From contig DBAY01000057.1 in the NCBI GenBank assembly GCA_002291925.1, forward strand, positions 5,194 through 69,193: a DNA stretch of 64,000 bases, written 5' to 3'. The translations under genes were made by a program, and so were the position numbers. The DNA is from Alphaproteobacteria bacterium UBA998 (GTDB lineage Bacteria; Pseudomonadota; Alphaproteobacteria; Rickettsiales; UBA998). This document shows positions 26,498-32,031 of the stretch, piece after piece. Every line of letters starts with the position of its first letter. Position 1 is the stretch's first letter. The notes beneath the pieces are model-generated. The model saw only the letters and a list, made by a program, of their open reading frames with translations. It did no database searches and was not told the origin of the DNA.

Positions 26498-29008
26498 CTA
26501 GTGCAGGGTGGCCGTGGTACCCTGCTGCTGATCGCGGTTGAGCGCGAGCCGCTCGGTGAAGCTCGGGCGGCGGTCCTCTGGCGCGGGCTCATGCGATTCC
26601 GCATTCTGCTTGCCCGCCCGGCGCGCCTGTTCCTTGCGGCGGAAGTCTGAGATGTCGCGCGCCACGGCGGCCTTGGCGCCCAGTGCATTGGCGATATCGC
26701 CCGACAGCCCGTTATCGGCCAGATGCGCGTTCAGTACATCGAGGCCCAGTTTCTTCAGCTCGGCATGCAATCCTTTGCCGACAAAGCGCTCGCGCAGCTC
26801 TTTCTTGCATTTGGCCTTGTCCTGCTGGGGAATGCCGCCGTCACGGTAATATTTGTTGCGCACCGCCAGCACATCGGCGGCGAACTGGTTGATGGTGGAA
26901 TTAGGCTGCGTGCCAAACCACGGGCCCAGCACGCCCGCGGCCATCTCTTCCAGCTGGCGCGGTTCGCGATCCGGATTGTTGACGAGGTAATTGATCATGT
27001 AATCGCGCAGCTTGGCCGGGCCGAGCGGGTAGCGCGAATGGTTGTTTGACCAGACCTCTTTCACGCCCGGCAGCACCACCTTGCGGTCCGAGCCCAGCGT
27101 GAAGCGCGTACCTAAGTTCATGCCATAGCTGAAGGGCAGGAAATTTAGCCCCACGCCCACGTTGGTGAGCGACGTGGCCGAGGCAAGGTAACCCCACGGT
27201 TTTGACTGATCAAACGCGATGCGGGCCGAGTAATCGTCGATATATTCCGCCTTGCGCACCCGCTCGCGCGTCGGCTGGAAATACCAGTCCGAGCCCAGCT
27301 TGTTGCCGTAGAAGCCGAGCGCCGCGGGCACGGCCATGTGCAGCACCTTCATCCAGCGATCCGCCGCGCCTGCGCCATGGAAGTTGTAGTGCAGCAGCGG
27401 CTTTTCCGCGATTTTCCCCATCGCGGGCATGAATTTGGCGAGGCGGAATTCCGTCAGCCGCTCGCCGCGGATGCCCATGCCGGTCAGCAGTTCCATGCCC
27501 TTCATGCCGGTATAGAGCCCGGTGGCGAGGCTGAGGGCATTCTTCCAGCGATGCAGGCTGGGCGGGAAATTAAGCGCATTGCCCATCCATTCCACGAAAT
27601 CCAGCGGCTTGCCGTTGACGATTGCAGCCACCCGGTGCGTGGGGCCGGGCTTGTGCGGGTCGCGCTCATCCGGCGTGGCGCCGCTCCACGAGCCCAGCGC
27701 CGCCATGCCGAGGAAACCGGCCCCTGCGGCCAAGCCAACCTTGCGGGCGGCTCGACTGCGCTCCGGCTGGGCGAGGACGTGGTCGCCCGTTTCCTCCAGC
27801 GCGCGGCCGACAGGCAGGCCCAGGCGCTGCGCTTCGGCGTAATGACGCGCATAAAAGCCCTTGGCGAAACTGTCGCGCAGTGCCTCGGTGTGGTTGCGGG
27901 CGCCTGCCCACTCGGCCACTTTCCCGAGCCAGCCATTCTCACCCGGCGTCAGGCTCTGGCGCACGGCCTGCCAGCTCGACATGTCCACCAGCTTGTGGTC
28001 CAGCAGGAAGGCCTCGAAACGTGTGTCGAGATACTCGCGCACGACATTGTCCAGCGCCTTCGCCTCCAGCCCGGAATCCTTCATGCGTTGCGCGTAGGCA
28101 TGGATATCCTTGGCAAAAGCTTCCACCTGCGCGGGGTTCACATGCTTGACCCACGCATGCAGCACGCCGTTGGCCAGCTCCTTCAGTTCCGGCAATTCGC
28201 TGGCGGCGAGGTGCGGATTGTGCACCACGTGCGTGATGGCCTGCCGGACCATGTCCTCCGGGCCGAGGGGGGAATTGGCGGTGGTGCGCGTCAGGTGGCG
28301 CAGGGGGTTCTTGATCCAGCCTTCCCAGCCTTTTCCTGACTCGCCCAGCATGCTGGCCATGCCGACCTTGCGGCCGCCGCGCAGGCCGAACAGGGCTCCC
28401 AGCGACGAAGCGTAGTTGCCGGGCCATGGCAGAAGGTTGAAGCCGGAGGCGGAGCCAAACAGCGAGGAGCCGGCGGTGGCCGCTGCCCACGGCTCGGCAT
28501 GCCGCATCGAGATGGTGCGGTCCGCGTCGGCGATGGTGAAGCCGCTGCGCTCCGCAAGGGGCGTGCTGGGTAGGTGCTTGCCGGCAAGGGCGGATTTCTC
28601 CAGCTGCGCCGCCAGTTCCATGCGCTCGCGGAAGAAAATGCGACTGGAGGTCAGTACGCCCACCGCGCCCAGCACGGCCGGGGCCATGTTGTCGATGGCG
28701 TGCAACCAACGGTCGCGCGGGTCGTCTGAGTAAACATTGTAATTCACCAGCCCGTGCAGGGGCCGCAGGGGCAGGGGCACATCCTCCTTCGCCAGCGGCG
28801 TGCCGTCCGGCGTATGGCCGACGATGACGTTCATCAGCTCCCGCCCGGCGAGCAGGCCTACGGAAAGGCCGGTGGCGTTGTAGAGCCGGTGCAGTCCCGG
28901 CGGTACGAACAGGCCCTTGACGAACACATACTCCATCGGCGCCAGCAGCGCGGCGGACGCCGTGCGGCGGGCGGCAGCGGAAGGGGTGGGAGCGACGTGG
29001 ATGGTCAA
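26498..29008 (-). CDS. large orphan protein (836 aa) made of two homologous ~300-400 aa modules with Gly/Ala-rich hydrophobic segments
   Basis: Uninterrupted ORF. The internal repeat is visible in the translation: PPGLHRLYNATGLSVGLLAG / PPSLHRWKNALSLATGLYTG, DRWLHAIDNMAPAVLG / DRWMKVLHMAVPAALG, and SPLGPEDMVRQAITHVVHNP / YPLGPAKLRDYMINYLVNNP. I recognise no family. Confidence 0.7.
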   Translation of the reverse strand: MTIHVAPTPSAAARRTASAALLAPMEYVFVKGLFVPPGLHRLYNATGLSVGLLAGRELMNVIVGHTPDGTPLAKEDVPLPLRPLHGLVNYNVYSDDPRDRWLHAIDNMAPAVLGAVGVLTSSRIFFRERMELAAQLEKSALAGKHLPSTPLAERSGFTIADADRTISMRHAEPWAAATAGSSLFGSASGFNLLPWPGNYASSLGALFGLRGGRKVGMASMLGESGKGWEGWIKNPLRHLTRTTANSPLGPEDMVRQAITHVVHNPHLAASELPELKELANGVLHAWVKHVNPAQVEAFAKDIHAYAQRMKDSGLEAKALDNVVREYLDTRFEAFLLDHKLVDMSSWQAVRQSLTPGENGWLGKVAEWAGARNHTEALRDSFAKGFYARHYAEAQRLGLPVGRALEETGDHVLAQPERSRAARKVGLAAGAGFLGMAALGSWSGATPDERDPHKPGPTHRVAAIVNGKPLDFVEWMGNALNFPPSLHRWKNALSLATGLYTGMKGMELLTGMGIRGERLTEFRLAKFMPAMGKIAEKPLLHYNFHGAGAADRWMKVLHMAVPAALGFYGNKLGSDWYFQPTRERVRKAEYIDDYSARIAFDQSKPWGYLASATSLTNVGVGLNFLPFSYGMNLGTRFTLGSDRKVVLPGVKEVWSNNHSRYPLGPAKLRDYMINYLVNNPDREPRQLEEMAAGVLGPWFGTQPNSTINQFAADVLAVRNKYYRDGGIPQQDKAKCKKELRERFVGKGLHAELKKLGLDVLNAHLADNGLSGDIANALGAKAAVARDISDFRRKEQARRAGKQNAESHEPAPEDRRPSFTERLALNRDQQQGTTATLH

Positions 29009-29171
29009 GGCGACACTCGATGCGGGAGAAAGCCCTTTTAGAATACTACACCGGCGCGCCTCTCACACGCGCACGAACGCTTCTGCGGGCGGAACTTCAT
29101 TAAACTGTCACAAAACGGCAAAAAATGCTGCGGTTGCGAAGGTTTGCAGGGGTGGCAGGCGTGCGGACTGT

Positions 29172-29186
29172 CATGAAATCTTCATG
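29172..29186. promoter_or_regulatory. palindrome CATGAA-ATC-TTCATG in the divergent intergenic region (candidate operator)
   Basis: Read directly from the sequence. It lies ~60 bp upstream of the GTG at 29247 and ~165 bp from the 29008 start. Confidence 0.2.
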
Positions 29187-31301: not shown

Positions 31302-31362
31302 CATGCTTTCTGCTTGGCGTAGGCAGGGATAGCCTCTAGGGTAGCCGCCAGAAGGTCTTCCC

Positions 31363-32031
31363 ATGCTGCCTGTCACGATCTCCCGCACGTTTCACACCCT
31401 TAGCCAGCCTTATTTCCTGCGGCTGCTGATGCTGAGCATCGGCGTGACACTCGGATGTTTCCTGCTGCTTTCTTTCGCGGCAGGGATGGTATTTCAGCAT
31501 GTCTCACTGTTTCAGGACACCTGGCTGGACCGCCTGGCCGATGTGGCAGGCACGCTGATGGTGATGGCGGCAGGCTGGTTCCTTTTTCCCATCGTGGTGC
31601 CGCTGATTGCGATTGTTTTTCAGGAGCAGGTGGCCAACCAGATTGACCGGGAGGAGTATGGCTTCACCCCCGAAAGCAGCCTGCCACTGGGGCCGGAACT
31701 GGTGCATGGCCTGAAGCTCAGCCTTCTGGCGCTGGGGCTGAACCTGGCCTGCCTGCCGCTGTATTTCACGGTGATATTGTTTCCCGTCGCCTATTATTCG
31801 CTGAACGGCTACCTGCTGGGCCGCGAATTCTTCGAGATGATCGCCGCCCGTGAGAAAGGCCGCCCCGCCGCCACCGCGCTGCGCAAGCGTTACGCCACCC
31901 GCGTCTTTACCGGCGGCGTGCTAATCGTGCTTATGAGCACGCTTCCCTTGATCAATCTGATTGCGCCCTTTGCCGGCATTGCGCTGATGACGCATTTGTA
32001 TCGGGCGACCTCAGAATCTGCTCCTTTATAA
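31363..32031 (+). CDS. EI24/CysZ-like integral membrane protein
   Basis: About four long hydrophobic segments and the motif YSLNGYLLGREFFEMIAARE, which I recall from EI24-domain (CysZ-like) proteins. Confidence 0.6.
   Translation: MLPVTISRTFHTLSQPYFLRLLMLSIGVTLGCFLLLSFAAGMVFQHVSLFQDTWLDRLADVAGTLMVMAAGWFLFPIVVPLIAIVFQEQVANQIDREEYGFTPESSLPLGPELVHGLKLSLLALGLNLACLPLYFTVILFPVAYYSLNGYLLGREFFEMIAAREKGRPAATALRKRYATRVFTGGVLIVLMSTLPLINLIAPFAGIALMTHLYRATSESAPL

Follow-up and report, generated by a model that had tools for sequence, protein, structure and literature searches.

The locus described here lies in a 64-kb window, that is, the whole stretch of 64,000 nucleotides that was analysed, from Alphaproteobacteria bacterium UBA998 (contig DBAY01000057.1). 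It comprises two large genes, here called A and B, transcribed away from each other across a 238-bp spacer. Open reading frame (ORF) A occupies positions 26498-29008 on the minus strand and encodes 836 aa from a TTG start, and ORF B occupies 29247-31301 on the plus strand and encodes 684 aa from a GTG start. A 222-aa EI24/CysZ-like ORF (31363-32031, plus strand) begins 61 bp past B. The pair is flanked by ispE (GHMP kinase, 25628-26494) on one side, and by tRNA-Pro (32453-32529, minus strand) and dapA (32622-33521) on the other. An initial annotation of this DNA had described two large divergent coding ORFs, an EI24/CysZ-like gene and housekeeping flanks, and this layout was borne out: the coordinates agree, the EI24/CysZ-like product matches PF07264, and A and B are genuine genes with homologues at 28-73% identity in many species. 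The peptides it quoted were all located, namely DRWLHAIDNMAPAVLG (residues 98-113), GLAAGAGFLGMAALG (424-438) and DRWMKVLHMAVPAALG (549-564) in A, and PRWMDSMGGRLAMRLFSRGVMG (65-86) and GVMGAAFLTAG (84-94) in B. The tryptophan richness that it had pointed out was also real, at 2.0% compared with 0.9% in neighbouring conserved genes.

Neither protein could be assigned to a family. Searches of A and B against Pfam and NCBIfam gave zero families, even at E ≤ 1, and those against PADLOC and PHROGs gave zero families at E ≤ 0.1, by which identity as a defence system or a phage family was rejected. When all 32 B members were compared with Pfam, nothing recurrent appeared, only four singleton chance matches. 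Against PDB sequences, neither the single sequences nor the family profiles of A and B gave a match, the best E for the B profile being 0.43. A word-indexed search of 5.8 billion clusters returned 7 relatives of A and 32 of B, none of them informatively named. By tblastn, B had no match in phage or plasmid collections and A had none in plasmids; with no phage or plasmid homologues and the pair placed in a syntenic housekeeping context, cargo of a mobile element, phage or plasmid was discarded as an explanation. The initial annotation had likewise named no family for either protein and had proposed profile and structure searches as the way to overturn this. No confident match was obtained from any library, from PDB sequences or from PDB and BFVD folds (fold matches being accepted at Foldseek E ≤ 1e-3), the fold search of B being made with a usable model and that of A with an unreliable one.

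Gene B was found at 88 loci in species-representative genomes (numbered L001 onwards where they need to be told apart). Among the matches listed, all 80 B loci belong to uncultured metagenome-assembled genomes, labelled Alphaproteobacteria, 'Rickettsiales bacterium', 'Azospirillum sp.', 'Azospirillaceae' or Pseudomonadota. Local hidden Markov model (HMM) searches of the B loci showed A to be far commoner than the indexed search implied. Gene neighbourhoods were counted at the 75 B loci with enough upstream sequence. The gene directly upstream of B was A, always divergent, in 40 of them, and c19, an unrelated orphan family of ~489 aa, in 13; the other 22 had neither. The most common gene order is dxr-cdsA-uppS-frr-pyrH-tsf-rpsB, then A (where present) pointing away from B, then B, with fumC further downstream, and the window represents an alternative setting beside TPR and ispE genes. 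Overall, the A-B pair is kept in at least 10 outer contexts (rpsB, ispE, c22 and seven others, including mutL/greA in L003, where a 32%-identical A homologue adjoins a B homologue, E = 2e-56). Since this adjacency survives rearrangement, a functional coupling of A and B can be argued.

In the 13 A-less genomes, c19 takes the place of A upstream of B (e.g., L055:8329-9795 and L052:1098-2564). It had no match in Pfam, PADLOC or PHROGs, and the idea that it is a diverged single A repeat was rejected by hhalign (E ≥ 0.06). In the sequence and fold searches made, none of A, B and c19 fell into a curated family or matched a solved or viral predicted fold, and all three appear to be new families.

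Gene A contains two paralogous units of ~390 aa each. Its halves (approximately aa 22-389 and 470-798) share 26% identity over 374 aa (BLASTP E = 5e-22), and the internal repeat was recovered by hhalign with E = 1.9e-38 over 319 columns, the aligned ranges corresponding to 27842-28945 (unit 1) and 26615-27601 (unit 2), both on the minus strand. The initial annotation had noticed a recurrent R-W-[LM] motif before the first hydrophobic stretch of each module, and inside A the parallel is one of true homology: the two DRW[LM] segments align with each other within the 319-column repeat, at equivalent repeat positions. In seven species (L018, L024, L032, L036, L040, L043 and L077), A is encoded as two genes whose junction consists of a Shine-Dalgarno sequence, a stop codon (TAA or TAG), 3 nt and an ATG in the same frame, that is, translationally coupled genes (e.g., L018:7042-9687). 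Since the units are separate coupled genes in these species, the 836-aa A of the window is, judging from such comparisons, a fusion of two paralogous units. Frame-shifted splits of A were also observed in L013, L049 and L062, and these may be assembly errors.

The start of A is uncertain, since the counterpart of M25 (ATG at 28936) is the first residue in some homologues. The N-terminal 'ARRTASAALLAP' was considered as a Tat signal and rejected, because it is absent or acidic in homologues (ALLEPMEY, or a start at MEY). The structure model of A, built from only seven sequences, was unreliable, with a predicted local distance difference test (pLDDT) score of 55 and a predicted template modelling (pTM) score of 0.39. 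Given such a poor model, the fold search made with it (best E = 0.2) is uninformative.

For B, an AlphaFold2 model was obtained with a pLDDT of 74 and a pTM of 0.73. It is a compact bundle with long helices of 28-44 residues and disordered termini. Foldseek gave nothing significant with this model, either against PDB (best E = 0.92, TM score ~0.1) or against BFVD (best E = 0.15). The B family profile retrieved 248 clusters at E ≤ 1e-3, 204 of them at E ≤ 1e-30, among 1.84 billion representatives, and this exhaustive search showed no tail toward other families. As modelled, B is an all-alpha protein of a closed, unannotated family. About 30 polar or aromatic residues are invariant in it, including Asp, Arg, Lys, Glu and Tyr.

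The spacer between A and B carries a conserved operator. In the 40 A-B spacers, GTCACAAA was present in 21 compared with 0.1 expected, and CTGTCA in 29 compared with 4.8 ± 2.0. Motifs for EcfG, CtrA, LexA, sigma-54, RpoH, Fur/Irr and plain sigma-70 were not enriched in the same spacers, and an Rfam scan of the A-B spacer gave no match. The operator consists of two 11-bp direct repeats, CTGTCA[CT]-AAAA-nCTTCAC (CTGTCAC-AAAA-GCTTCAC), facing B, with the consensus aCTGTCACAAAAnCTTCACa. It was found upstream of B in 71 of 84 loci, including those with B only. The B promoter is built of the operator, 22 nt and an extended -10 element (TGnTAnAnT), an arrangement conserved by position across 84 sites, and it has no -35 element at a workable spacing. 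Since the -35 is missing and the repeats stand at a fixed distance before the extended -10, we read the B promoter as activator-dependent.

The operator was calibrated by a position weight matrix (PWM) scan of 1.33 Mb from the 84 loci in comparison with shuffled sequences. At 14 bits or more, 103 sites were observed vs 5.9 in shuffles, with 85 vs 1.3 at 17 bits or more and 59 vs 0.3 at 20 bits or more. Only 3 of the 103 sites fall within ORFs, and 71 lie just upstream of B.

In the window, the proximal operator, CTGTCAT-GAAA-TCTTCAT, lies at 29168-29185 on the plus strand (PWM score 27.8); it is Pho-box-like and is the predicted activator site of the B promoter, whose extended -10, TGGTAAAAT, follows 22 nt later at 29205-29213 (plus strand). 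A distal repeat element, ACTTCAT-TAAA-CTGTCAC, lies at 29094-29111 (plus strand) and is oriented like B. It stands at a fixed spacing from a sigma-70-like promoter of A (25 loci), which is placed approximately at 29040-29070 on the minus strand; the family consensus of this promoter, cTTGAG, 16-17 nt and TGCTAc, is weakly matched in the window. An operator in the orientation of A itself was rejected, only two strong cases being present in the 40 spacers. In one subclade, the B leader carries a conserved strong Shine-Dalgarno sequence and a 4-codon mini-ORF (TAAGGTGAGAAAAACC ATG AGG TTn nnn TGA, MRLx*), which may be a leader peptide or another translational control element. It occurs in L041 (9907-9990), L048, L053, L055, L058, L059, L061 and L084 and is absent from the window.

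A PHO box has been defined as two 11-nt direct repeats of 7 conserved plus 4 positions, with the Escherichia coli core CTGTCAT (PMC4415409). The operator has this architecture, with two 11-nt direct repeats and a CTGTCAT-like core. As in PhoB promoters, each of its 11-bp units has 7 conserved positions and 4 that are A/T-rich, CTGTCA[CT] forms the first half-site, and the operator replaces a missing -35 before a good -10. We infer that the operator is bound by a response regulator of the OmpR/PhoB family, PhoB being the closest known consensus. The ChvI/BvrR regulon was rejected as the source of the motif, since the published ChvI consensus, TTGC-N3-GCAA or GCC-N8-GCC (PMC9731502), is unlike it. 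Only generic OmpR-family regulators, with 32-36% identity to E. coli PhoB, are present in the window and 87 loci. The histidine-kinase cluster c29 was also discarded as the cognate sensor, since it is heterogeneous, lies near B in 7 of 84 loci and has no consistent regulator partner.

About 21 operator sites at 17 bits or more lie away from B. They precede c19 (four times), Peptidase_M23, GH108+CHAP, MCD-like and NUDIX proteins and several proteins of no family. Two of the wall-active proteins with an operator are a 740-aa GH108+CHAP protein (L012:16840-19059) and a 313-aa M23 peptidase (L041:15053-15991). In at least four genomes, c19 is preceded by an operator of its own. In the window, a second operator, GCTTGTCACAGAATCTTCACGT, lies at 7316-7337 on the minus strand (PWM score 20.5), the next-best score in the window being 11.9. 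It is followed by TGCTACAAC and by a 365-aa NUDIX-domain gene (6182-7279, minus strand; Pfam PF00293, E = 2e-6), which thus has the same operator and TGCTA -10 as B. No N-terminal signal peptide is evident by eye in the regulon proteins. A 434-aa protein with an operator in L072 (4933-6234) has no Pfam match and, by eye, an L,D-transpeptidase-like HPG...GTAGC motif. A regulon defined by this operator was not found in the literature searched. Taken together, A and B appear to be clade-specific families forming a conserved divergent pair under a single predicted transcription factor.

The proteins also share features of composition and of their C-termini. The A tail, ...PSFTERLALNRDQQQGTTATLH (26501-26584, minus strand), is related to the tail of the B family, which in the window is ...NGWQAYEISRLQQRERGAPPGATVH (31215-31298, plus strand). 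The B-family consensus is ...SYAEQEAMRKALEELxPPTNSI[NH]; the family ends in [ILV]-[HN], the last residue being His in 103 of 173 sequences and Asn in 27, following Ile, Val or Leu. Looser versions are found in A (both halves), c19, the NUDIX protein and the GH108-CHAP protein, and where A is split each half has its own C-terminal tail. The NUDIX protein of the window, with the C-terminus ...GWRARLEAERAMAIGNAMAPVPAGRMH, ends in ...PAGRMH, a hydrophobic residue plus His as in the A and B of the window. The pattern 'Pro ... hydrophobic end' was found in 69-70% of A, B and c19 proteins vs 14% of 466 conserved neighbours, the pattern being post hoc. With an HMM of the B tail only, 17 A proteins were among the top 40 non-B matches vs 1.5 expected (p = 2e-15). 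The proteins may be substrates of a type I or type IV kind of secretion system that reads C-terminal signals, but the tail matches no published secretion signal that was verified.

Cysteine accounts for 0.14-0.23% of residues in A, B and c19 (0.14% in c19) vs 0.8-1.1% in neighbouring genes, which is about a five-fold depletion. The hydrophobic stretches of A and B are short, with 15-23 uncharged residues, and Gly/Ala-rich. Their 19-residue Kyte-Doolittle means peak at 1.2-1.5 in A and stay below 1.2 throughout B, compared with 2.1-2.4 in the EI24 protein. Taking a hydrophobic helix of ~20 residues with a 19-residue mean of at least 1.6 as the mark of an integral membrane protein, A and B fall short, and their stretches are not classical transmembrane helices.

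We tentatively favour a reading in which A and B are co-regulated, exported, membrane-active proteins and the variable members of their regulon attack peptidoglycan, a possibility that we would hold to be some way short of probable. One response regulator of the OmpR/PhoB family would bind the operator and switch on A, B and the rest of the regulon. The C-terminal tail would serve as a common recognition or export signal. Once exported, A and B would be membrane-active, for example as a translocator or pore-forming pair, with the weakly hydrophobic Gly/Ala-rich helices buried in a helical bundle until a target membrane is met. In such a scheme A and B would form the conserved core of the regulon.

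Alpha-helical pore formers and translocators (ClyA/Nhe/Hbl, colicin pore domains and YopB/YopD-type proteins) are likewise large, Cys-poor, all-alpha and encoded as pairs, with long helices and short Gly/Ala-rich hydrophobic ones. They differ in that no sequence or fold similarity was found (best PDB E = 0.9, with NheA 15th at E = 4.8) and that no secretion system is linked to the A-B pair. In Legionella, the genes of the PmrA/Dot-Icm regulon encode many unrelated signal-peptide-less proteins and have a tandem repeat of the OmpR-family type at a constant distance before the -10; at the C-terminus of Dot/Icm substrates lies a loosely conserved signal in which Glu and small polar residues are frequent. 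By analogy, the regulon described here may resemble it in its fixed-distance repeat, its unrelated proteins without signal peptide and its possible C-terminal signal. The two differ in motif and bacterial class, no type IV secretion system was seen here, and B is far more conserved than typical effectors are.

Several observations weigh against exported, membrane-active proteins. By Foldseek, B is unlike pore formers of the ClyA/Nhe/colicin type or secretion translocators, and the A model, with its pLDDT of 55, is too poor to interpret. No secretion apparatus turned up in the window or in the ~1.3 Mb of B-centred loci, neither of which was searched systematically for one. Cysteine depletion would equally fit periplasmic or membrane proteins of the producer itself. 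Single A-tail matches were weak (E = 0.3-7), and the tail pattern was defined after the data had been seen. B has no adjoining A or c19 in the 22 loci noted above, and as a core, syntenic and strongly conserved gene it is atypical for an effector and would suit an enzyme or a housekeeping envelope protein. Finally, the gap between operator and -10 is about 12 bp longer here than in E. coli PhoB promoters.

A bolder form of the same idea is doubtful. It would make the locus part of an undescribed export or attack system of a clade of uncultured Alphaproteobacteria, in which one response regulator switches on signal-less proteins carrying a new C-terminal signal. A and B (or c19) would be its conserved, membrane-inserting translocator or pore pair of new fold, and M23, GH108-CHAP, NUDIX and orphan proteins its variable cargo aimed at other cells. 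The proposed signal would be an amphipathic helix followed by Pro and a short hydrophobic end, finishing in B with [ILV]-[HN].

The alternative that survives best, although still rather unlikely, is that A and B are Pho-regulon proteins of the producer's own envelope. PhoB would induce them at low phosphate, and their task would be to reshape or protect the membrane or wall of the producing cell, or else to scavenge phosphorus, with no export to other cells; B could then be an enzyme. Both the layout and the sequence of the operator come closest to the PHO box, and some sites are canonical CTGTCAT-N4-CTGTCAT, e.g., CTGTCATGAAACTGTCAT. Consistent with this proposal are also the many invariant Asp, Arg, Lys, Glu and Tyr residues of B, its status as a syntenic core gene, and the presence under the same operator of a NUDIX hydrolase, an enzyme that cleaves phosphoanhydride bonds. 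However, pstS and phoU were not found in the window or in 87 loci. At most sites the second half-site reads CTTCAC and not CTGTCA, and the operator ends 22 nt from the -10, both of which set it apart from PhoB promoters. The co-members identified are peptidoglycan hydrolases and orphan proteins, with no phosphate transporter or phosphatase among them, so that the content of the regulon, as predicted from a small and B-centred sample, is not that of a classical phosphate-uptake regulon. Moreover, these proteins show no signal peptide by eye, and yet are Cys-poor and have a C-terminal tail in common.

That A and B are intracellular structural or regulatory proteins, with the tail acting as a degradation or partner-binding tag (e.g., for a protease or adaptor), seems less likely again. 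In its favour, inspection by eye reveals no signal peptide, the Kyte-Doolittle means of B all stay below 1.2, the model of B is a compact helical bundle, and the tail ends in a conserved hydrophobic-polar dipeptide, as some C-terminal degrons do. Such a location is at odds with the five-fold depletion of cysteine, with the Trp-rich, Gly/Ala-rich hydrophobic helices, and with the co-regulated peptidoglycan hydrolases, whose substrate is outside the cytoplasm.

The initial annotation had suggested a membrane module of three proteins, A, B and the EI24/CysZ-like one, with A and B as distant paralogues, and this is very improbable on both counts. The EI24 product matches PF07264 over its full length (E = 4e-20, 73.2 bits vs a gathering threshold of 32) and falls below the cut-off of the NCBIfam equivalog PRK12768, a sulfate-transporter family protein (109 vs 191 bits); it has 4-5 hydrophobic helices. 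In favour of the module, the gene begins 61 bp past B in the same orientation, and no terminator-like site separates the two, so it is possibly co-transcribed with B in the window, and the arrangement recurs in L001, L004, L008, L009 and L088. These five loci are, however, simply the closest relatives of the window (58-73% identity), so that their synteny is uninformative. EI24 adjoins B in none of the ~78 other loci, not even in L003, where the A-B pair is retained, and it is therefore a lineage-specific neighbour outside the conserved unit. Of the expected co-occurrence and adjacency of the three genes, the part concerning A and B stood up, and the part concerning EI24 held in closest relatives only.

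As for paralogy, BLASTP of A vs B gave E ≥ 0.36. Comparison by hhalign of A profiles from 7, 49 and 63 sequences with an 85-sequence B profile gave probabilities of 0.1-0.3%, and reciprocal iterated HMM searches gave no cross-match at E ≤ 100. As none of these sequence comparisons was significant (E ≥ 0.18), A-B paralogy is not supported by sequence, and only the two halves of A are paralogous. With hhalign relaxed, the two proteins line up (E = 0.62) at a first helix that is rich in glycine and then at a P-[GN]-V-K-x-x-W motif, which may be a hint at most.

Other features of the window were recorded. Between the EI24 gene and tRNA-Pro lies a 79-aa ORF with a GIY-YIG domain (32089-32328, minus strand); no gene was called at its position in the syntenic L001 and L004, and a small insertion at the tRNA is possible. 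A 62-aa ORF (23506-23694, minus strand) between the ETF-QO and TPR genes, with no family assigned, was also called at the same place in L001, L004 and L088. Between smpB and a glyoxalase-II gene lies an acidic 407-aa protein with no Pfam match (34112-35335, plus strand). Syntenic unannotated genes in L001 (2012-3163) and L004 (1980-3233) make it a further conserved orphan, one with no operator detected in front of it. A 687-aa pectate-lyase-like beta-helix protein (36104-38167, minus strand) with RTX nonapeptide repeats and a serralysin C-terminal domain, ending in ...DATDFIFG, looks like a type I secretion substrate.

A transposase-like 188-aa ORF (4349-4915) is found between tRNA-Leu(CAA) and tRNA-Phe(GAA), in a stretch (3787-5064) with a lowered GC content of 0.555. 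The GC content falls to 0.507 at 16001-18000, compared with a mean of ~0.60, across the PAS-EAL gene (16033-17739), and this region may be horizontally acquired DNA. Overall, the source organism appears metabolically ordinary, with a PhaC-like synthase, a thiolase, a trehalase, the PAS-EAL protein, RimK and the RTX beta-helix protein.

Unannotated protein pairs are common in uncultured bacteria, and the established paradigm would be unaffected unless export or a new secretion signal were demonstrated. If the favoured reading is true, it would provide a regulon that spans the clade and has a simple operator that can be searched for, two or three protein families outside known folds and families, and possibly a new C-terminal sorting signal linked to cell-wall-degrading enzymes. 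It would also give a handle on the biology of alphaproteobacterial lineages that have no cultured member in this survey. Even if the idea of export fails, an anonymous pair of 'hypothetical proteins' becomes experimentally tractable, as part of a concrete, testable regulon of which B is the most conserved target.

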